A DNA stretch of 64,000 nucleotides. It comes from Alphaproteobacteria bacterium. GTDB taxonomy: Bacteria > Pseudomonadota > Alphaproteobacteria > JAGOMX01. The notes under the pieces are model-generated. The model searched no databases, was not told the origin of the DNA, and was given only the letters and a program-made list of their open reading frames with translations. Of the stretch, positions 5,058 to 46,543 are shown in pieces. The stretch is from positions 1,185 through 65,184 of the forward strand of contig JAGOMX010000004.1 of assembly GCA_017993335.1 (NCBI GenBank). Direction: 5' to 3'. Each line of letters begins with the position of its first letter. The first letter of the stretch is position 1. Both the position numbers and the translations under genes were made by a program.

Positions 5058-5377
5058 CCCCGTCATGCTGAGCGCGGCTCCGCGCAAGCGGAGTTAGCGA
5101 AGCATCCAGGACTATAAGTGCCGCGATGGCGGCTCTTTATAATCTATATAGAGCCAGAGGCCATTTCAAAACTGGCTTTTTTGGAGGGATTTATAGGAAA
5201 GGTGAGAACCGGAGCGCAGCGTACCTCTTCGTACGTGAGCACCGGGAGCGGAACCTTGACGACGAAATCACCCAAAAAAGACGTTTTGAAATGGCCTCAG
5301 CCACTAAAGTGGCACTTGTGTGCCTGGATCCTTCTCTCACTCAGCTAACGCTGAGCTTCGATCAGGATGACGGGGGT
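5058..5377 (+). repeat. P1-family palindromic element (about 173 bp native), copy P1a, interrupted by a 142-bp MITE insertion
   Basis: cccgtcatgctgagcgcggctccgcgcaagcggagttagcgaagcatccaggactataagtgccgcga...gacggggg. Collinear with the copy at 7758-7928 except for the inserted 142 bp plus 5 bp. Confidence 0.65.
5157..5298 (+). mobile_element. MITE-like non-autonomous element: 142 bp, 16-bp terminal inverted repeats GAGGCCATTTCAAAAC, 5-bp target-site duplication AGCCA
   Basis: The ends gaggccatttcaaaac ... gttttgaaatggcctc are perfect reverse complements. They are flanked by AGCCA (5152-5156) and AGCCA (5299-5303). The uninterrupted site gagccactaaag exists in the paralogous repeat at about 7848. 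A second copy is at 54547-54688 in reverse orientation. Confidence 0.7.
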
Positions 5378-5613: not shown

Positions 5614-7644
5614 ATGGTGGTTTCTTATAAAAATTTGAGCACAGCGATGCTTTCCGTATTGTTGTTAACGTCTCCATCCTTTGGATCGGCGGAGGGTAGT
5701 GAACCTGACTTGAAAAAGGCGAGGGTTTCTCCTGGTTCGGATGATTTTGATTGGATGTCTTTGGTTGAGGTAAAAAAAGAACCAACCGATGAAAGGCGTG
5801 ATGCGGGTGTTGACCTGTTTTTGCTGACTCATGAGGGGATTAAAAATAATTTAAGACGAATTAATCCGGTTGATCCGGTTTTAAAGAGAAAACCAACGGC
5901 GAATTGCTTGCTTTGTTGTGTTTCGTTTTTGAATTGGGTTAAGACGGGTGTATTGACGCCGGCTCCGGCGGTGACTCCGGATAAACCCAATATTTTGATT
6001 CGCCCGAAAAATGCCGTGCTTTTAGATCAAGATGCGGCAAAAGCCATTCCTGGCCATGCGGTGGAAATTATTATTGAAGATGTGCAAGAAAAAACAGTGG
6101 CAGATCTAGATGTTATCGCTGTGGTAGAGCGAGATGGCCGCAAAATAATTTCGTTTGATCCTTGCGCGATGTCTGATTTAGAAAAGACTCTAGCGGATTT
6201 GCATTTGCATCCGGTTCGCGGCGGGGATTGTGCTTCAGGTCTTATGAGCCTGGGGTATAAGCCTGAATACATGGACAAGGTCGTTACGGAGGCTGGCATT
6301 ACCGGGCACTTTCTGAATTTTTATATGTATAGCGATGCTTCGGGATTCAGAAAAACATACATTGTGGATCCGCAGACTTCGGAAATCACGACCTTGGCAA
6401 ATTTCATAAAAAAAGAATCGAAGTATGATTTAGATACCGTGTACCTATGGTGGGATAGTACGAAAAAAGCCTGGGCTGAGCCTATTTCTTACGTCAAAAA
6501 AGAACCGGTCGCAGCAGAGGTTCCAGAAGATATTCTAACGGATGCCGATCCCAATCCCAGAAAAAGATCCGCAGAAATACCCCTGGAAGAATTGCAAAGC
6601 AATGACGCTCAAAAAAAACCTGCCATAGATGATTTTGAAGAGAACGATCGTATACTTGCGACATTTGCATGGAAAGATAAAGATAATCTTCTAGGGGATC
6701 TAGATCGTTTCTTAACCCAGGCGTTTAATCTGAATCAGCAGCAACAGTCTTTTTGGGTCATGGATATGTCCTTAAAAGGCAGTATCTACGCACAATCGAT
6801 ACTAAGCTGGATGTATTTTTATGGAAAAATATCTGGTGCTAGTGATTATACTTCCGCAGTATTTTATGCAAGAAAATCCGCCGATCAGGGGTATGCTCCA
6901 GCGCAATGTGGTTTGGGGTTTTTATATTCAAACGGCCATGTAGACGGCCAAGTGAATGGGGTCGAGGCTTTCAATTGGTATAAAAAAGCCGCCGATCAGG
7001 GGTATGCTCCAGCGCAATGTGGTTTGGGGTTTTTATATTCAAACGGCCATGTAGACGGCCAAGTGAATGGGGTCGAGGCTTTCAATTGGTATAAAAAATC
7101 CGCCGATCAGGGATATGCTACAGCGCAATGTAATTTGGGGAGGTTATATGCAAACGGCCATGTAGACGGCCACGTGAATGGGGTCGAGGCTTTCAAATGG
7201 TACAAAAAAGCCGCCGATCAGGGGCATGTTGCAGCGCAATATGGTTTGGGGTTTTTATATTCAAACGGCCATGTAGATGGCCAAGTGAATTGGGTTGAAG
7301 CTTTCAATTGGTACAAAAAAGCCGCCGATCAGGGGCATGCTACAGCGCAATATAGTTTGGGGGTTTTATATGCAAAAGGCCATGTGGACGGCCAAGTGAA
7401 TAGGGTCGAGGCTTTCAAATGGTGCAAAAAAGCTGCAGATCAAAATTATGCTGTCGCACAAGATGCTCTGGGGGATATATATGCCAATGGTTATCTTGGT
7501 AAAAAAAATTTAGAAGAGGCTTTAAAATGGTACAACAAAGCTTATTTACAGCAGAGAGATTTAGTTGAGCAAAAAATAATTGAGGTTAGGAAACAGATGG
7601 GGAAAATAAGGGCTTATAACTTGCTATTTCGCAATTCTCTCTGA
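5614..7644 (+). CDS. Sel1-like repeat (SLR) protein with N-terminal signal peptide and a unique N-terminal domain of about 400 aa; effector-like
   Basis: Signal peptide MVVSYKNLSTAMLSVLLLTSPSFGSA. Six tandem 37-aa repeats AADQGYAPAQCGLGFLYSNGHVDGQVNGVEAFNWYKK fit the Sel1 consensus (A..G...A...LG..Y..G.GV..d...A..WY.KAA). Confidence 0.85.
   Translation: MVVSYKNLSTAMLSVLLLTSPSFGSAEGSEPDLKKARVSPGSDDFDWMSLVEVKKEPTDERRDAGVDLFLLTHEGIKNNLRRINPVDPVLKRKPTANCLLCCVSFLNWVKTGVLTPAPAVTPDKPNILIRPKNAVLLDQDAAKAIPGHAVEIIIEDVQEKTVADLDVIAVVERDGRKIISFDPCAMSDLEKTLADLHLHPVRGGDCASGLMSLGYKPEYMDKVVTEAGITGHFLNFYMYSDASGFRKTYIVDPQTSEITTLANFIKKESKYDLDTVYLWWDSTKKAWAEPISYVKKEPVAAEVPEDILTDADPNPRKRSAEIPLEELQSNDAQKKPAIDDFEENDRILATFAWKDKDNLLGDLDRFLTQAFNLNQQQQSFWVMDMSLKGSIYAQSILSWMYFYGKISGASDYTSAVFYARKSADQGYAPAQCGLGFLYSNGHVDGQVNGVEAFNWYKKAADQGYAPAQCGLGFLYSNGHVDGQVNGVEAFNWYKKSADQGYATAQCNLGRLYANGHVDGHVNGVEAFKWYKKAADQGHVAAQYGLGFLYSNGHVDGQVNWVEAFNWYKKAADQGHATAQYSLGVLYAKGHVDGQVNRVEAFKWCKKAADQNYAVAQDALGDIYANGYLGKKNLEEALKWYNKAYLQQRDLVEQKIIEVRKQMGKIRAYNLLFRNSL
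6880..7545 (+). repeat. Six tandem 111-bp coding repeats (Sel1 units); the first two are near-identical at the nucleotide level
   Basis: Units start at about 6880, 6991, 7102, 7213, 7324 and 7435. Units 1 and 2 differ by about 1 nt. Confidence 0.8.
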
Positions 7645-7757: not shown

Positions 7758-7928
7758 CCCGTCATGCTGAGCGCGGCTCCGCGCAAGCGGAGTTAGCGAA
7801 GCATCCAGGACTATAAGTGCCGCGAAAGCGGCTCTTTATAATCTATATAGAGCCACTAAAGTGGCACTTGTGTGCCTGGATCTTTCGCTTACTCCGCTGA
7901 CGCGGAGCTGCGTTCAAAATGACGGGGG
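7758..7928 (+). repeat. P1-family palindromic element, copy P1b (intact, 171 bp)
   Basis: The left half cccgtcatgctgagcgcggctccgcgcaagcggagttagcgaag is the approximate reverse complement of the right half ctttcgcttactccgctgacgcggagctgcgttcaaaatgacggg. It contains the intact MITE target sequence gagccactaaagtggcac. Confidence 0.65.
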
Positions 7929-7949
7929 TATGATGCTTAATTTATTGTA

Positions 7950-13392: not shown

Positions 13393-14652
13393 CTATAAAG
13401 TTAAGGCTAGTCTCAAATCATTGTGTTCAAAGGCAGATGACATGCGATCTGCCTCGCGGTCTTTCATGCCTAGTAACTTTGCCTGCTCTCTCCATCCTGC
13501 CACCGCAATTCCAGCCTCATTTGCTATTCTTTTGGCAGATTCTTTTGAGAGGCCAAATCTATCTGATACGCTCAAGGCAAGTTCTAATGAAGCGCAGTCG
13601 TCTTCTTCATCTATTGCTAAAGAGAGGCGCCTGGGTTTTATATCCAAGGGGGTGGGGTTAATGTCATATGCGGGTGATAGTCTCCATCCATCTGAATTGG
13701 GTAACAAAAGCCCATGATTTCTCAAATGATCATCAGTGTTAGACACTAGAATGGAAAAAACGATTCTTTTCCAGAGCTCGATCAAGTCTTGCTGAGGGTT
13801 TCCACTATAACGACGCAATGCATCTGCTACCTCAAGATAGCTATGGGGATCGTTGTCGCCAGCTTCTAGAAGGCTCATAGCCGAGATAAATGGTATTCGT
13901 TTAACGCCAATGCGATCAAACCTGTTAAGTAATATGACCGAACGACCAGCAATTTTTAACAATTTATGACGTGTGACTCGCAGGCCTGCCTTAGATGCAA
14001 GGGTCAATGCAAGACTTTCCCAAGCTGGCAGGTCTATGTTATCTTCCGGATGAGGAAACTTTGCTATCAATAACTCCCCTTCTTTTGAACGCACGGAGGC
14101 CTTTGGTCTGGCCCCACCCAAAGAAGAGCCTGGCGCTAATAGCAGTCTCATCTCTTCATCATTTTCTTCCTCTTTTATAGCATGGGTGGTGGCCACAAGC
14201 AGGCGAGGTAAATCAATTAATAGAGGCACACGTTTTCCATTGACGGGTTGCGCTAAAAAAGCTCCCTCTAGTTTTTCCGAAAATCTTAGCGCTCCTTGCC
14301 GACATTCATCATCAACATTCAACAAAAAGTCTATCTCTTGAAGGGTGTGCGGGTTTTCACCTTTAGTCTTGGCTAGTCTCTGATGGGTTCGCCTCATGAG
14401 TGTTCTGCCCCAACGGTCTGGAGCTGAATCACCAATTGAGCCGAACAAAGCTCTGCCTTGTCCAGTATGAAATGGAGCTGGGTGCAAAGTTAATGCCGGC
14501 TCTAAGGCGAAGCGTGAAGGATTAGTTAGCCAGCTAGAGTCGTATTCAAAACTCGAACTTTCACGACCTTTCCGGTTTCTCGCAAAAAGACGCCCTACAA
14601 AGAAAGTGTTTCCTTCCCAATCCACATAGACAAATGCAATTTTGTCTGTCAC
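13393..14652 (-). CDS. hipA: type II toxin HipA-family serine/threonine kinase
   Basis: HipA N-terminal coupling domain (VYVDWEGNTFFVGRL), SLGGARPKASV motif and catalytic TDDHLRNHGLLL motif. The GTG start overlaps the hipB stop (GTGA). Confidence 0.85.
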   Translation of the reverse strand: MTDKIAFVYVDWEGNTFFVGRLFARNRKGRESSSFEYDSSWLTNPSRFALEPALTLHPAPFHTGQGRALFGSIGDSAPDRWGRTLMRRTHQRLAKTKGENPHTLQEIDFLLNVDDECRQGALRFSEKLEGAFLAQPVNGKRVPLLIDLPRLLVATTHAIKEEENDEEMRLLLAPGSSLGGARPKASVRSKEGELLIAKFPHPEDNIDLPAWESLALTLASKAGLRVTRHKLLKIAGRSVILLNRFDRIGVKRIPFISAMSLLEAGDNDPHSYLEVADALRRYSGNPQQDLIELWKRIVFSILVSNTDDHLRNHGLLLPNSDGWRLSPAYDINPTPLDIKPRRLSLAIDEEDDCASLELALSVSDRFGLSKESAKRIANEAGIAVAGWREQAKLLGMKDREADRMSSAFEHNDLRLALTL

Positions 14653-18181: not shown

Positions 18182-18955
18182 ATGTGGATAGATAGTCATT
18201 GTCACTTAAACTATGATGATTTTGGGAGCGATTTGCCAGAAGTTTTTCAGCGGGCTAAAGATGTTGGTATAGAAAAAATGCTGACGATTTGTACGGATAT
18301 GGCCGAGGCCGATACTATACTAAAGCTCGCCAACCAGCATCCAGAATTATGGTGCACAGTTGGTGTGCATCCCCATGAGGCAAAACAAACCGTTGATCTG
18401 ACGGGTCTGTATGAGAACTTAAAGTCGTATATGGTTCATGAAAAAGTCATCGGTTTAGGGGAGACAGGCCTGGATTATTATTATGAACACAGCCCAAGAG
18501 CTGAGCAGCAACAAGCTTTTCAGGTGCATATGGATGTGGCAAAAGAGCACGATTTGCCCTTGATCGTTCATACAAGAGACGCAGAAGAAGATACAATCGC
18601 TTGTCTAAAAAAACAGCAAGGCGCTGTAAGAGGCGTGATTCATTGCTTTAGTGGCTCTCATTGGCTCGCGCAACAAGCATTAGATTTGGGTTTTTATATT
18701 TCTATCTCCGGCATCATTACGTTTAATAAGGCGGAAGACATTCGTCAAACCCTCAAAAGTGTACCGTTAGATAGAATCTTAGTGGAAACCGACGCCCCAT
18801 ATTTGGCTCCTGTCCCAAAAAGAGGCCAACGAAACGAACCCGCATTTATGATCCACACCGCAGAAAAAGTCGCGGAAATAAAAGGGATCTCTACACAAGA
18901 GCTAGCGAAAATAACCACAGAAAATTTTTATCGCTTATTCTCAAAAGCTTTGTGA
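18182..18955 (+). CDS. tatD: TatD-family metal-dependent hydrolase/DNase
   Basis: MWIDSHCHLNYDDF...GLGETGLDYYY...VETDAPYLAP motifs. Confidence 0.9.
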   Translation: MWIDSHCHLNYDDFGSDLPEVFQRAKDVGIEKMLTICTDMAEADTILKLANQHPELWCTVGVHPHEAKQTVDLTGLYENLKSYMVHEKVIGLGETGLDYYYEHSPRAEQQQAFQVHMDVAKEHDLPLIVHTRDAEEDTIACLKKQQGAVRGVIHCFSGSHWLAQQALDLGFYISISGIITFNKAEDIRQTLKSVPLDRILVETDAPYLAPVPKRGQRNEPAFMIHTAEKVAEIKGISTQELAKITTENFYRLFSKAL

Positions 18956-18967
18956 TGCCATATTTAA

Positions 18968-19080
18968 TACCAATTCCATAAAATAACTGATAAATCTTAC
19001 CCTCGCTGCCTGCGCAGGTATGACAGGCAATGGTTGAGGAGATTCAAGACAGCCTCTATCTGTATGCTTATACTAATTCC
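18968..19080 (+). repeat. Family-A element, internally deleted copy A2
   Basis: ccaattccataaaataactgataaatcttaccctcg fused to ctgcctgcgcaggtatgacaggcaatggttgaggagattcaagacagcctctat. Lies immediately 3' of tatD. Confidence 0.6.
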
Positions 19081-19121: not shown

Positions 19122-20078
19122 TTATGATTTTGGTTCAAAACAAAAACGACATTTCATCATAAGAAGAATCCCCCCCGCCTGCCTCATCGGCAACTGCCTC
19201 CAACCGGTACCTGCATCCGGATGCCGCCGCACTTTTTTATGCTCATATATATTGAAAATAGGGGTTTCGTTCATCTCGCCAAATCTCAAGATCGTATAAT
19301 TGAACCCCCAGGTGGTAATATCATCCCCACCATACCTACTAAGCATACAAACCGCCTTCTGCGATAAATCTGCTTCGGAGACGTTCCGTAGAAATGCAGG
19401 ATGGGTGGATATCTGCTCAGCAATACGTTTCAATTCACTCAACGTCAGAAGAAGAAGAATAGTTTTTTCAGTATTGGGATAAACCGGATTTAGAAATTTT
19501 TCTGTCATCCTCGTGACACACAGATCTGAAGGGATAGTCTTTGGCAGAATGAGCTCACCATTGGTCGTGTCCATATACATATCTGATAATTGGACATCAA
19601 TTACAGTTAAGCCTCCAGGTTCATAGCGGAAAATGCCGTTTTTTAGGGTTCTCTCATCCTGCTCCATCATTCGCAGCCTCAGATATGGCTCCGGGCTTTC
19701 CGGGGGTATAGGCCTACCAAATTTTATAGCTGGGAGAATAATTTCCCTTACATAATTAAGATTATCGGAGCCTAAGAAAAAGCGACACCAAGATTTACAA
19801 ACCAAGGCATAATCTGAGGTCAGTTTTTGCGCCAAAAATCGATTGGCAATAGTTTTTTTTATGTCCAACGGTATTCCAGGAAAAAATTCTTCATGCAAAA
19901 TGCGTGCAGATGAAGATTCTTCCGGTACCTCCATGTTAGCCAAAGCGAGGCGATGAACGGATGGAGACTCAAGTTCCAGAGGGGGCAGTCCATCTTCACT
20001 TGCAAGTACATTAAAATACCCTGCACTTAAGATCATGAGACTTGTGATTATCGCTAATTTCTTTGTAAACTTAATCAT
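19122..20078 (-). CDS. secreted hypothetical protein with an F-box-like motif
   Basis: Signal peptide MIKFTKKLAIITSLMILSAGYFNVLA. Residues about 68-100, IPLDIKKTIANRFLAQKLTSDYALVCKSWCRFF, match the F-box consensus LPxEIlxxIlxxLxxxxLxxxxxVCKxWxxl in spacing and key residues. Confidence 0.6.
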   Translation of the reverse strand: MIKFTKKLAIITSLMILSAGYFNVLASEDGLPPLELESPSVHRLALANMEVPEESSSARILHEEFFPGIPLDIKKTIANRFLAQKLTSDYALVCKSWCRFFLGSDNLNYVREIILPAIKFGRPIPPESPEPYLRLRMMEQDERTLKNGIFRYEPGGLTVIDVQLSDMYMDTTNGELILPKTIPSDLCVTRMTEKFLNPVYPNTEKTILLLLTLSELKRIAEQISTHPAFLRNVSEADLSQKAVCMLSRYGGDDITTWGFNYTILRFGEMNETPIFNIYEHKKVRRHPDAGTGWRQLPMRQAGGILLMMKCRFCFEPKS

Positions 20079-20119
20079 TTATACGAATCTCTATATATAT
20101 CAAAAACATCGTTATACAC

Positions 20120-20376
20120 GGAATTATACCAGATCCTATAATTAAGTATACAGATAGATGCTGTCTTAAATCTCCTCAACCATCGTCTGTCATACCTGCG
20201 CAGGCAGGTATCCAGCGCAACATGTGCCTCGAAGAGGCTCCATATTTCCTTGCTTCTGTGGCATTGAAATAAATGGAGAGCTGCTGTGCAGCACTTTGTT
20301 GTGCTGGATTCCCGCCTTCGCGGGAATGACAGGCGGCGAGGGTAAGATTTATCCGTTATTTTATGGAATTGGTATT
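20120..20376 (-). repeat. Family-A element, copy A3, in inverse orientation to A1
   Basis: Its reverse complement aligns with 117-321 across the full length, including both hairpin modules. Confidence 0.7.
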
Positions 20377-20418
20377 AGTTGAATAGAGGAATAGTGTGAA
20401 CTATTCCTCTATTCAACT
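20377..20418. repeat. perfect 18-bp-stem hairpin (agttgaatagaggaatag / ctattcctctattcaact) with a 6-nt loop
   Basis: Exact reverse complementarity read from the sequence. Lies directly next to the A3 element. Confidence 0.8.
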
Positions 20419-20453
20419 AATGTTCCTTTATGGTGTGCAGGGGTAACTAGATC

Positions 20454-20489
20454 ATAAAAAAACCCCAGCAAATTTGCCGGGGTTTTTTT
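20454..20489 (-). terminator. rho-independent terminator downstream of rpsD (potentially bidirectional)
   Basis: aaaaaaaccccagcaaatttgccggggttttttt: a GC-rich stem of about 10 bp, flanked by an A-run and a T-run. Confidence 0.75.
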
Positions 20490-20504: not shown

Positions 20505-21119
20505 TTAACGAGAGTAATGTTCAATTACCAAGTTAGGTTCCATCTGCGCGGCATAAGGAACTTCGCTTAGTGTTGGGACGCGGATAAACGTTCCAACCAT
20601 TTTTTTCTCGTCGACCTGGATGTATTCCGGAAAATCGCGTTCTGCGGATTTAAAGGCATCCATAACGTTTGGATTTTCGTGCATGCGGGCGCGGAGCTCG
20701 ATGATATCACCTTCTTTTAATTGGCAAGAAGGGATGTTTACGCGCTTACCGTTTACCAAGATATGACCATGGTTGATCATTTGGCGTGCGGCGAAAACCG
20801 TAGCCGCAAGTTTCATGCGGTATACGATCGCGTCCAAACGACGCTCGAGCAATCCGATAAGGTTCTCACCTGTATCTCCCTTACGACGTTCCGCCTCTTT
20901 ATAGATCTTGCGGAATTGACGTTCAGTAATGTTACCATAGTAACCACGAAGTTTTTGTTTGGCTGCAAGCTGGATACCGAAGTTTGAAAGCTTCTTAGGC
21001 TTGGCGCCATGTAAGCCTGGTCCATATGAACGTTTGTTAACTGGGCTTTTTGGACGACCCCAGAGATTCACGCCATAGCGACGGTCTATCTTGTATTTTG
21101 CCTGAATACGTTTTGTCAT
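20505..21119 (-). CDS. rpsD: 30S ribosomal protein S4
   Basis: [26 protein letters not shown]... is the canonical S4 sequence. 204 aa. Confidence 0.95.
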
Positions 21120-39363: not shown

Positions 39364-41577
39364 ATGACTCTATTCAAAATAACACGTAATTTATTTGCAG
39401 CTTTAATGTTTTTATGTGCATCTGTGCATGCCTCTAATCCCAGTGAACGTGCCGAGATTTTGTTTAGAATTTGTTGCGGGGATTTGACGATAGAGTCTGC
39501 CTATTCAGAGGAAAAATATAAGGATTTTAATATGTGTGTTAAAAATCTGGAAAGAAATATAAAGATTTTATCGTCTCCTGATGCAGATATGGGTATGAAA
39601 ATGGGGATGGCTAATCTTCTTTGTAAGGATCCAAGATTCTGCCATAAAAAAGAATACAAACAAATTGGGTTAAGATTTTTTGAAGAGTTGTCACTGTTGG
39701 GGAAGTATTCAGATGCCCAGTATATGTTCAGTTTCTTTCTATTAAAAGAAGATGATCCAGAATGTGTGAAAAAAGGATTGAAGTGGCTTGAAATATCTGC
39801 AAATGCTGGTGAGACTATGGCCATGAATGGTATGGCTTTGAATCTTCTTAATTCTACGTGGTGTGAGGATACGTTAGAAAATAAAAAGAAGGGAATGGCG
39901 TGGCTTGAAAAAGCTGCAAAATTAGGTTGTCCAGCTTCTCAATCTACTTTAGGGCGCTATATGGTGAGGGGGATGTATGTTGATAATACAAAAGAAAACA
40001 AAAAAAAGGGTATCGAATGGCTTGAAAAGGCTGCCGAGGCCGGTATAGTTTACGCCATGAATGATCTAGGTGTGTTCCTTATTCAATCAGGAGAAGAACA
40101 GAAAAAAGGTATAGAGTGGATAATGAAGGCTGCAGATTTAGGTCATGCGGTTTCTATGTCGAATCTTGGTCTTTTAATGATAAAAAATAAGTATTTTAAA
40201 GATACGAAAGAAAACAAGAAAAAGGCTGTGGAATGGCTTGAAAAGGCTGCAAATGCAGGCGTAATTTCCTCTATGAATGAACTAGGCAAGGCTCTTGTGG
40301 GGGCTATAGGCTGTGAAAATACACCGGAAAATAAGAGAAAGGGAATTGAGGTATTTATAAAAGCTTCCGATGGGGGAGATGCTGTATCCTCTTTTCAAAT
40401 TGCGTATTTTTACTTCACGGGAATGTCTGTGCTAGAGAAGGATTTCCAGAAAGCTATATATTATTTTGAGAGGGCAAATGATAAATATCTTGCGGACGAT
40501 TATATGGGGTTTTGTTATTTAAAGTTGTCTGAATACAGAAAATCCTTGAAACACTATGAGCTTGCGAGAAGAAGAGGAGCATTTGTATCGGATGCAATGA
40601 TTAAATACTTAGAATCTAAAGCGAATCCTCAATTTCAGGACCGTAAAAAATCTAAAAACAACAGTAAATCTAGAACAATTCAGGGAATTCAGAGCGATCT
40701 AGATCAACAAAAAATTCAGTTGCTGCAGCAGTATGATTCGGTTTCTACCCAATTAAAAAAACTGGAAGAGCTGAAGGTAAAAAATAACTATAAGTCGGAT
40801 GCGGGCGATGAGGTCTCTGCAGAGGAGTTAAAAAAGTATAGGGATGATTTTGTAAAAAATCATAAATCTACTTTAGCCAATAAACAGGAAAATATATCCT
40901 TGTTTCAAGATTATCTGATGAATATAAAAGATAAAATTTTTCACCAAAACCAAGCTTTGAGCATAAGCATAAGAATGGAAAATCAGAGAAAAACCATCCA
41001 GGATCATTATGATGCTTTTGGTGTGCTGTCTGTAGATGAAGAATCTAGAGAAGCAAAAGCATCGGCTAAGAAAAATGCACAACTGGTTTTGGATCAAGAA
41101 AAAGAAAAGGCGCACGCCAAACATAATAAATCTAATGCAAAGAAAAAAAAGAAGAAGTCAAAAAAAACGGTGCCGATAGCAACGCAAGCGGAAACAAAAG
41201 CAATCGGACCATTCTCCGATACTCGTTTGATCGTCAAAACAGAAGCTGATATACCAGAGGCGGCTATGCAGAAAGCTTATACAATTCTGAACGGAATTCG
41301 GGATTCCCGCACGATAGATGAGGTTGTCAATAAGTTGAAATCTCTGGATATCAAGGTAGACATAAAAAAAATATCATCAGACTACGCCGGTTGCCCAGAG
41401 GCTGATGTGGTTTATGAGGCGAGAATCAACAACCAATATCGTGTGATTATTCCCTTTATCCATGTGAAAAATGAGGCTATTGCTAATGACAATAATAATC
41501 GCACACCAGAATCCGATGTCACAACTTTAATATATCAAAGCGAAATATACATCTGCGATCCCCATGTGAAGCAATGA
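39364..41577 (+). CDS. Sel1-like repeat protein with signal peptide, Lys-rich coiled-coil segment and a unique C-terminal domain; effector-like
   Basis: Signal peptide MTLFKITRNLFAALMFLCASVHA. Repeats KKKGIEWLEKAAEAGIVYAMNDLGVFL, KKKAVEWLEKAANAGVISSMNELGKAL and others. A K-rich tract KKKKKKSKK. Confidence 0.8.
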   Translation: MTLFKITRNLFAALMFLCASVHASNPSERAEILFRICCGDLTIESAYSEEKYKDFNMCVKNLERNIKILSSPDADMGMKMGMANLLCKDPRFCHKKEYKQIGLRFFEELSLLGKYSDAQYMFSFFLLKEDDPECVKKGLKWLEISANAGETMAMNGMALNLLNSTWCEDTLENKKKGMAWLEKAAKLGCPASQSTLGRYMVRGMYVDNTKENKKKGIEWLEKAAEAGIVYAMNDLGVFLIQSGEEQKKGIEWIMKAADLGHAVSMSNLGLLMIKNKYFKDTKENKKKAVEWLEKAANAGVISSMNELGKALVGAIGCENTPENKRKGIEVFIKASDGGDAVSSFQIAYFYFTGMSVLEKDFQKAIYYFERANDKYLADDYMGFCYLKLSEYRKSLKHYELARRRGAFVSDAMIKYLESKANPQFQDRKKSKNNSKSRTIQGIQSDLDQQKIQLLQQYDSVSTQLKKLEELKVKNNYKSDAGDEVSAEELKKYRDDFVKNHKSTLANKQENISLFQDYLMNIKDKIFHQNQALSISIRMENQRKTIQDHYDAFGVLSVDEESREAKASAKKNAQLVLDQEKEKAHAKHNKSNAKKKKKKSKKTVPIATQAETKAIGPFSDTRLIVKTEADIPEAAMQKAYTILNGIRDSRTIDEVVNKLKSLDIKVDIKKISSDYAGCPEADVVYEARINNQYRVIIPFIHVKNEAIANDNNNRTPESDVTTLIYQSEIYICDPHVKQ

Positions 41578-45253: not shown

Positions 45254-46543
45254 ATGTCGAATCCTTTTTTTGCCGTCTTTGTCGTCATGGTTTTTGTGGC
45301 GAATATTTCTCGTTCTTATGCCTCTGATTTGCCTGAATCGTTACCCTCGCAACATTCTTATTCATCTATGTTATTTCGTCCGTTCAATGCGGTGTTGGAT
45401 GTGGTTTGTGCGCCTTTGCATTTTATGTCCACGAAGAGTTACGCGGAGCAACTGGAGGATAAATTCAAAACCATATCGAAAGTTCTCCATAAAAAAGTTA
45501 TTTCACCGGAACTTAAAGTAGATGTTTTGCATGATCTTGAATCCTGTGCTTCTGCAGGGCATCCGCAGGCTATGTATGTGTTTGGCTCTTTATTGTTAGG
45601 TTGCCCTGCAGAGCCCTATAATGCCCTAGAAGCCCTTATTGAACGGGATCGAGATTTGGGTTTTCAATATGTAGATGCGGCTGCGAATAAAGGGAGCGCG
45701 GAGGCAATAAGTTTACGGCAGCAATGTTGGGGCGCTACGAAGTTAGAATCTTTAGTAAACGATAGTTTGGAAGTGGCCAGCGATGAGGAAAAACAGAAGT
45801 TTGCAGCTCGTGTGACCGAAGAAATGCCGGAGCTCGTGCGCGTTAATCCTCATGCGGCCTTTTATTGCTGTGATGCCATTTTAAATAAAGAAAAATCGGC
45901 TTATCCGTGGATGTCCAGTTCATCATTATCCTTGCTGGATCAACGAACGATTATGAGTCCTTTATTGAAATTCGCTGTTAAAAATAATGTTTTAGAAGCC
46001 AGGCGGTTAATGTATTTTCTGGAGCAAGAAGACGCGGTTTATGTCCGTGTCTGTGAATCCATCATGAAAAATCCAGAGAAAATCATCAAAGGTTTGAGTA
46101 TGTGGGATCCAGGATATTTGCAAGAGCATATTAGTTTTCTTGTGGAACAAACCATTGAGGAAAGAGGGTATGTCTTAACGAAAGAATATGCCCTGTTTAT
46201 AAAGTCCGTTATGGGGCTTCGTATGAATCAAGTTTTTTACTTTCTCGGGTCGTATTTTAGTTACATCCGAATTTCCCGGGCCACTGAATTTAATGATGGG
46301 GAGATCGGTACTTTGCTGCATGTAATGAGCGTGCGTAAAATGGGGGATCTTCTTGTGGGTAAAACAAATTATTTCTTAGAACCTATCTGGCATAAAGATT
46401 ATGAAAAAGGTCTTTCTGTCGATTTCACCGAACATAAACTGTATTGTGCCGTAACGAAGCTAGATGTGCATTTAGCGTTAGGGATGTTATTGGATTTTGA
46501 AGATCATCCTTTTCCGGAGGTAGCTAACCTGGTGATGGAATAA
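45254..46543 (+). CDS. secreted hypothetical protein (429 aa) with a single possible Sel1-like unit
   Basis: Signal peptide MSNPFFAVFVVMVFVANISRSYA. CASAGHPQAMYVFGSLLLG resembles a Sel1 repeat. Confidence 0.6.
   Translation: MSNPFFAVFVVMVFVANISRSYASDLPESLPSQHSYSSMLFRPFNAVLDVVCAPLHFMSTKSYAEQLEDKFKTISKVLHKKVISPELKVDVLHDLESCASAGHPQAMYVFGSLLLGCPAEPYNALEALIERDRDLGFQYVDAAANKGSAEAISLRQQCWGATKLESLVNDSLEVASDEEKQKFAARVTEEMPELVRVNPHAAFYCCDAILNKEKSAYPWMSSSSLSLLDQRTIMSPLLKFAVKNNVLEARRLMYFLEQEDAVYVRVCESIMKNPEKIIKGLSMWDPGYLQEHISFLVEQTIEERGYVLTKEYALFIKSVMGLRMNQVFYFLGSYFSYIRISRATEFNDGEIGTLLHVMSVRKMGDLLVGKTNYFLEPIWHKDYEKGLSVDFTEHKLYCAVTKLDVHLALGMLLDFEDHPFPEVANLVME

Follow-up and report, generated by a model that had tools for sequence, protein, structure and literature searches.

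Is the protein encoded at positions 19122-20078 of this alphaproteobacterial contig a relative of the eukaryotic F-box proteins, and, if so, could it act on the ubiquitin ligase of a eukaryotic host? Through the F-box, SCF substrate receptors such as Skp2, FBXW7, FBXO42, and FBXL17 bind Skp1. Bacterial mimics of the F-box are already well known, and the bacterial F-box effectors include LegU1, LicA, Agrobacterium VirF, and the Ralstonia GALA proteins; those that have been characterised leave the cell by type III, type IV, or type I secretion. The initial annotation of the window, by which we mean the whole 64-kb stretch of DNA that was analysed, described at this position a secreted orphan protein with an F-box-like motif and a classical Sec signal peptide, lying in a slot delimited by two repeat copies. 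Our analysis partly confirms this observation, and the interpretation drawn from it is partly supported.

The gene, its neighbours, and its flanking repeats

The open reading frame is real. It lies on the minus strand, starts with ATG, and spans 19122-20078 with the stop codon included; it encodes a protein of 318 amino acids, which the NCBI record of this metagenome-assembled genome (MAG) lists as MBP6985147.1 (locus tag KBB83_00995) with the product name “hypothetical protein.” The peptide in which the F-box likeness had been seen, IPLDIKKTIANRFLAQKLTSDYALVCKSWCRFF, is present as residues 69-101 of this protein (19776-19874). The neighbouring genes had also been named correctly, and both names stand in the NCBI record: the convergent gene at 18182-18955 on the plus strand is a “TatD family hydrolase,” and rpsD, which lies upstream at 20505-21119 on the same strand as our gene, encodes the “30S ribosomal protein S4.” Immediately past rpsD, direct inspection of the sequence revealed a terminator-like hairpin (20456-20489) with an A-run and a T-run at its sides, which suggests that the gene at 19122-20078 is not co-transcribed with rpsD. 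Our promoter and terminator consensus scan around the gene returned nothing informative, and this hairpin went uncalled because of one mismatch in its stem.

Repeat copies do lie on both sides of the gene, as had been claimed. Copy A2 (18962-19070, plus strand), located between the tatD stop codon and the 3′ end of the gene, is internally deleted, so that only both ends of a palindromic element of about 250 nt are left; copy A3 (20126-20377, minus strand) is full length and inverted relative to A2. Two other copies, one full (113-350) and one partial (54331-54521), bring the total to four in the 64 kb. A full copy folds as a long imperfect palindrome or hairpin (-54.6 kcal/mol, z = -7.7 versus shuffles). 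Since the repeat measures only about 250 nt, occurs in several copies, and has this palindromic fold, we regard the copies as MITE-like palindromic elements; the non-coding, self-complementary, and intergenic character of such elements is found here as well. The resemblance to MITEs and to Rickettsia-palindromic-element-like repeats lies in the length, the copy number, the palindromic, non-coding, and intergenic nature, and the occurrence of deletion derivatives. Unlike those elements, however, the A-repeats have no defined terminal inverted repeat or target duplication and are known from one strain only. They were found solely in contigs of that strain, whose short-read contigs break at the copies; homologues and relatives have none at their loci. 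The repeat-delimited slot of the initial annotation is thus real, but it is a strain-specific arrangement that does not recur around homologues elsewhere.

Two side observations concern the sequence next to A3. A perfect 20-bp inverted repeat with a 6-nt loop abuts its outer end (20375-20420). On the inner side, a conserved stretch of about 25 nt with GGAG/AGAG lies right before the ATG, both in the window (20079-20126) and in the upstream regions of three paralogue loci (L001, L020, and L021), and these three loci have in common a TTGACA box farther upstream. Since A3 ends 48 nt before the ATG, at the site where TTGACA is expected, the repeat may replace or supply the promoter.

The site itself is variable. 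Relatives with an RpsD at least 90% identical retain the gene order upstream of rpsD, differ in the gene content downstream of it, and have no family member beside rpsD. Homologues occupy unrelated sites: after rplQ in a Danish soil MAG, beside genes for DnaJ and a reverse transcriptase, after tamB, or among unannotated secreted proteins. As one part of our best, still tentative reading, the gene would be an accessory insertion at a rearrangement-prone site beside rpsD, bracketed by strain-specific MITE-like palindromic repeats. Other repeat pairs in the window bracket other genes: 5059-5377 and 7758-7929 enclose a Sel1-repeat gene (5614-7644), and 31667-31753 and 34462-34548 enclose a 716-aa open reading frame without a Pfam match (32133-34283). 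That three leader-bearing accessory genes, including ours, are each bracketed in this way suggests that the repeats mark or promote their insertion.

Whether the repeats themselves carried the gene in is a separate question. We consider it very improbable that the gene is the cargo of a composite mobile unit built by the two inverted copies and brought here by their transposition. Such a unit would explain why inverted copies stand on both sides of the gene, why synteny in relatives breaks exactly at its site, and why two more accessory secreted-protein genes of the window are also bracketed. The repeats, however, have no transposase, A2 is a deletion derivative, the copies at 113-350 and 54331-54521 are solitary and intergenic, and the homologues in other genomes lack the repeats altogether. 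Sequence inspection found no direct target duplication at the outer ends of A2 and A3, and there is no compositional sign of recent transfer, the GC content of the gene (42.3%) matching that of the window (43.9%).

A family of leader-bearing proteins

The label “orphan” in the initial annotation proved wrong. By a word-indexed search, 7 homologues at 40-58% identity were recovered, and when 1.84 billion representatives were searched with a HMMER profile, 68 cluster representatives were matched at E <= 1e-3, 17 of them at E <= 1e-30. The family therefore comprises at least 68 clusters at 50% identity, and none of the 68 representatives carries a name or a Pfam domain. Common to the family is an architecture of a leader, a variable linker, an F-box-like segment, two helices, and, at the C-terminus, an alpha/beta domain some 190 residues long. 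In the window protein, whose parts all lie on the minus strand, the leader takes up residues 1-26 (20001-20078) and is followed by a linker that is variable in the alignment and predicted with low confidence (residues 27-63; 19890-20000; pLDDT < 50). The F-box-like segment, as matched by the family motif HMM, covers residues 64-106 (19761-19889) and includes residues 69-101. Behind it come two predicted linker helices at 107-120 and 131-146 (residues 107-146; 19641-19760), the C-terminal alpha/beta domain (residues 147-285; 19224-19640), and a variable tail of basic and hydrophobic character (residues 286-318; 19125-19223), in which F314 is a nearly invariant Phe. The linker of many homologues contains a poly-Asn run. 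Runs of 4-5 Asn stand directly past the signal peptide in P0002, P0008, P0009, P0011, P0021, P0039, P0061, and P0066, and the window protein has none.

By a rule-based check, the N-terminus satisfies the description of a Sec (SPase I) signal peptide, and the earlier call of such a leader holds to that extent. Residues 1-7 (MIKFTKK) form an n-region with a net charge of +3, residues 8-23 (LAIITSLMILSAGYFN) an h-region with a mean Kyte-Doolittle hydropathy of 1.61, and V24-L-A26, before Ser27, the c-region. A lipoprotein signal and a Tat signal were rejected on inspection, there being neither a lipobox Cys nor a twin arginine. According to the per-column information, the leader is the best-conserved segment across the family (2.44 bits per column versus 1.6-1.8 in the domains), with the consensus M..fTKKiaiaasl.al.sGqF.AfaS, and the leader HMM matched no other open reading frame of the window.

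The window holds a single member, as the family motif HMM found no further paralogue in its 64 kb, and a metagenome scan with the close alignment recovered three loci. Four members (P0002, P0003, P0006, and P0026) co-occur in the same samples, and one of these samples also has a contig 99.8% identical to the P0002-bearing MAG contig, so a single genome probably carries several paralogues. The modules of these proteins appear to differ in history: the identity of the window protein to P0003 is 78% over the leader and 32% over the F-box-like segment, and to P0002 the corresponding values are 33% and 72%. Such mosaic identities point to recombination among paralogues. On the same tentative footing as the accessory insertion, and again as part of our best reading as a whole, we would describe the family as fast-evolving, multi-copy, exported proteins of uncultured alphaproteobacteria. 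Of additional note, P0006 (L014, 74-9756) is found among several unannotated signal-peptide genes, including one for a 1366-aa protein with faint LRR matches, and this locus resembles an accessory island with many genes for secreted proteins.

F-box likeness in profiles and in the predicted structure

As a check of the motif, the initial annotation had proposed HMMER against the Pfam F-box models PF00646 and PF12937 and had counted a missing match toward a chance resemblance. The window protein fails this check: neither the protein nor its excised segment matches these models at E <= 10, so on those terms the motif would formally be dismissed. Pfam and NCBIfam as a whole likewise gave no match to the protein or its excised segments, and phmmer and hmmsearch against the PDB, with the window protein and with an 8-sequence profile, returned no F-box and nothing meaningful. 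When the window sequence alone was aligned to an F-box profile with hhalign, the probability was only 53%. Judged by these comparisons, the motif of this single sequence is no more than what chance could produce, and it becomes significant only as a family profile.

At the level of the family, the likeness that had been read from one protein is reproducible. PF12937 is matched by 29 of 58 excised segments (best E 2.6e-6, an estimated ~28 bits) and PF00646 by 25 of 58, while each unrelated family among the 24,736 Pfam models is matched by at most 2 of the 58. Among full-length members, PF12937 is the sole Pfam family that recurs, with matches in 15 of 59 (best E 4.1e-5). Most Pfam matches are limited to the LA.VCK.W half of the model, positions 22-41. 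Of the homologues and consensus sequences that were scored individually, none reaches the Pfam gathering score (24.3 / 20.5); they lie at 12-20.6 bits, the best one at 20.6 bits versus the cut-off of 24.3, and by this score the family stays outside F-box membership.

A profile-profile comparison gave a clearer signal. Our comparison profile was built from a seed of 11 eukaryotic F-boxes, and in a validation against the PDB it retrieved 51 distinct sequences, most of them outside the seed and all of them F-box proteins except one chain named ECT2L. With hhalign, the family motif, whose consensus is LP.D[VI]..lIl..as....P..La.VCK.W, aligned to this profile with 40 columns in register at a probability of 97.1% (E 7.7e-11). 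The highest values among 60 column-shuffled F-box profiles were a score of 19.1 and a probability of 42.8%, versus 44.1 and 97.1% for the real one, and the reversed profile gave 0.8%. The signal does not depend on a particular subset, since it appears at 93.9% with only the 15 closest sequences and at 96.9% with only the 43 distant ones. When the 59-sequence full-length profile was searched against all of the PDB, the three best matches were to FBXO42 (E 0.029) and FBXL17 (E 0.06), with alignments of about 46-60 residues placed exactly on their F-box domains. The family thus has profile-level likeness to the F-box, in register, across the motif of about 40 residues.

The predicted structure, which had been proposed as a second check, speaks on both sides. 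An AlphaFold model made with 8 sequences was too poor for use (pLDDT 49.6), and a model made with 59 sequences reached a pLDDT of 78.2 and a pTM of 0.70. In the latter, the F-box-like segment has helices at residues 71-83, 88-92, and 95-102 with moderate confidence (pLDDT 69-82), and their placement matches the H1-H2-H3 pattern of F-boxes. The sequence of motif, linker helices, and a separate, confident C-terminal domain (pLDDT 91-98) is the usual layout of F-box proteins acting as SCF receptors. However, a Foldseek search of this model against the PDB and BFVD (viral models) returned nothing at E < 0.5 and hence no F-box structure, though the PDB holds many F-box proteins; Foldseek is weak on helical modules of 40 residues. 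Three predicted helices stand in F-box positions, and the F-box-like fold is not confirmed by Foldseek. The same result means that the C-terminal domain, which also lacks a Pfam match, is without a detectable structural relative in the PDB and BFVD. Because fusions of F-box and SUKH domains exist (PMC3113570), we considered a SUKH (Smi1/Knr4) identity for this domain and rejected it: no Pfam SUKH match was found in the 59 members and no Foldseek match was obtained, though FBXO3 is in the PDB.

Compared with the eukaryotic F-boxes of Skp2, FBXW7, FBXO42, and FBXL17, the family shares about 40 residues in register (LP, an acidic residue, I/V, I, a hydrophobic position, and VCK.W), and in the window protein the three predicted helices are correctly placed, with linker helices and a distinct C-terminal domain behind them. 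Unlike those F-boxes, the family has no LW past helix 3, has Ala in place of the core Leu in most members, scores below the Pfam gathering cut-off in the members listed, and is bacterial with a Sec leader; the C-terminal domain of the window protein, moreover, is not WD40, LRR, Kelch, or SUKH.

A possible host-directed role and its rivals

Alongside housekeeping genes, the window contains genes for two Sel1-repeat proteins, for one LRR protein, and for a HipA-type kinase, as well as several open reading frames without Pfam matches. Sec-type leaders are found on the two Sel1 genes, the LRR gene, and at least two genes for unannotated proteins (5614-7644, 39364-41577, 48609-49787, 32133-34283, and 45254-46543), and from their sequences these proteins could be a Sec-dependent host-interaction repertoire. 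The 676-aa Sel1-repeat protein (5614-7644) contains six tandem units of 111 nt, or 37 aa each, at 6762-7601; they are 62-91% identical to a reference unit, and the whole looks like a recently expanded array. The HipA-like kinase gene (13393-14652, minus strand; HipA_C E 3e-47) is possibly part of a toxin-antitoxin module. No secretion-system gene was seen among the 20 larger open reading frames of the window that were scanned.

Sel1/TPR, LRR, and F-box proteins occurring together are typical of amoeba symbionts such as Amoebophilus asiaticus (PMC8831229) and Berkiella (PMC9803151) and are presumed to form a host-interaction repertoire. Those organisms belong to other phyla or classes, their proteins are found by standard domain models, and the passages cited here describe no conserved family-specific leader. 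By analogy with their repertoires, the Sel1, LRR, and F-box-like proteins make a host-associated lifestyle of the source bacterium plausible. In favour of it we count the two Sel1 proteins and the LRR protein with leaders, and a GyrB relative at 72% identity, one of the metagenomic relatives at 70-89%, which lies on a 1.7-Mb contig. Counted against it are the nearest named GyrB relatives, which are free-living Rhodospirillales (66-68% identity), and the window itself, in which there is neither a 16S gene nor a host marker.

Based on these findings, we propose, with somewhat less than even confidence, that a bacterium which is probably host-associated exports the protein via Sec as a divergent F-box-like adaptor aimed at the SCF ligase of a eukaryotic host. 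In the proposed mechanism, the leader would direct the protein to the Sec translocon and be cleaved after Ala26. The mature protein would then cross the outer membrane and enter the cytosol of a eukaryotic, probably protist, host. There, residues 64-106 could fold into three helices in the manner of a divergent F-box and dock on host Skp1; the resemblance of this segment to the F-box is what the profiles detect, and docking is what it may be for. The C-terminal alpha/beta domain would select a host protein for SCF-dependent ubiquitination or would sequester it.

Counted against this host-adaptor reading, a Sec leader that is cleaved off would leave the protein in the periplasm. The protein may instead work there, on the cell surface, or in the medium, and its F-box-like helices, as a motif repurposed or arisen by convergence, may serve a structural or protein-binding purpose without ever meeting Skp1. 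We regard this as possible but rather doubtful. It agrees well with the classical-looking cleavable Sec signal being the best-conserved part of the family, with a window that has no visible secretion system or host marker, and with the Pfam F-box scores, which are sub-threshold in the members listed, as well as with the failure of Foldseek to find an F-box structure and the alignment of Ala with the conserved core Leu in most members. It agrees less well with a profile match of about 40 columns that includes LP, the hydrophobic H1 positions, and VCK.W and lies far above the shuffles, or with F-box proteins being the best PDB matches. Two further points also argue for the host-adaptor reading: the protein is built like an SCF receptor, with a motif, then linker helices, then a C-terminal domain of its own, and the nearby leader-bearing Sel1 and LRR proteins are in keeping with a host-directed secretome.

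A more sceptical explanation would deny any relation to the F-box in fold or function and attribute the likeness to chance in a short, amphipathic stretch of helix. F-box models are short and carry little information, the window sequence alone gives nothing significant, and the HMMER E-values against the PDB are marginal (0.03-0.06), all of which a coincidence could account for. It is difficult, however, to see by coincidence half of 58 diverse members matching the same two related Pfam models, in register, among 24,736 models, or a probability of 97% where 60 shuffles give at most 43%, or the distant (43 sequences, 96.9%) and close (15 sequences, 93.9%) sets arriving at the signal separately. 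We therefore consider chance quite unlikely as the source of the resemblance.

How would the proposed adaptor compare with known effectors? Legionella AnkB is a bacterial F-box effector (PMC2916131). Effectors of the AnkB, VirF, and GALA type resemble the window protein in that the latter, to judge from its sequence, would also carry an F-box-like module ahead of a target-binding domain, and its genome has genes for Sel1 and LRR proteins as well. Those effectors differ from the window protein in that the Pfam F-box models detect them and that, lacking a Sec leader, they are injected through type IV or type III machinery; delivery of that kind, including type I, does not describe a family across which the leader is conserved. 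AnkB has a C-terminal CaaX motif, which the window protein lacks; it ends in ...CFEPKS, and a CaaX motif was rejected on inspection. The window protein also has no known partner domains and has a C-terminal fold of its own, and our profile search of 1.84 billion representatives found no homology to bacterial F-box effectors outside the motif. What is new here is the Sec leader, a C-terminal fold not yet assigned, and a family that routine annotation has missed.

A different parallel is offered by the phytoplasma SAP proteins with their conserved “SVM” leader and by the Sec-delivered effectors of Liberibacter, which belong to wall-less or cytoplasmic plant pathogens. They recall the present family in a leader better conserved than the mature part, in the mosaic exchange of modules, and in the delivery by Sec alone that has been proposed for them. 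They have no sequence relation to it, however, and come from different bacterial groups, and the window protein would still have an outer membrane to cross. A broader proposal would see here a Sec-dependent class of SCF-hijacking adaptors in protist-associated alphaproteobacteria, which combine a divergent F-box with a substrate-binding fold not seen before, use the conserved leader as a dedicated sorting signal, exchange modules among paralogues, and do without type III or type IV injection. We consider a class of this kind unlikely.

The meaning of the finding turns on Skp1. If the module does not bind it, this is an ordinary uncharacterised family of exported proteins. If it does, the finding would add an alphaproteobacterial family to the SCF-receptor mimics, one that standard domain annotation misses, would suggest that F-box adaptors can reach a host via the general secretory pathway, and would provide a new candidate substrate-recognition fold. 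In either case, profile-profile comparison can recover, from metagenomic families, eukaryote-like domains that fall below the Pfam cut-off. For the bacterium itself, to judge from the sequences, the family may help it to hijack the protein-degradation machinery of its host.
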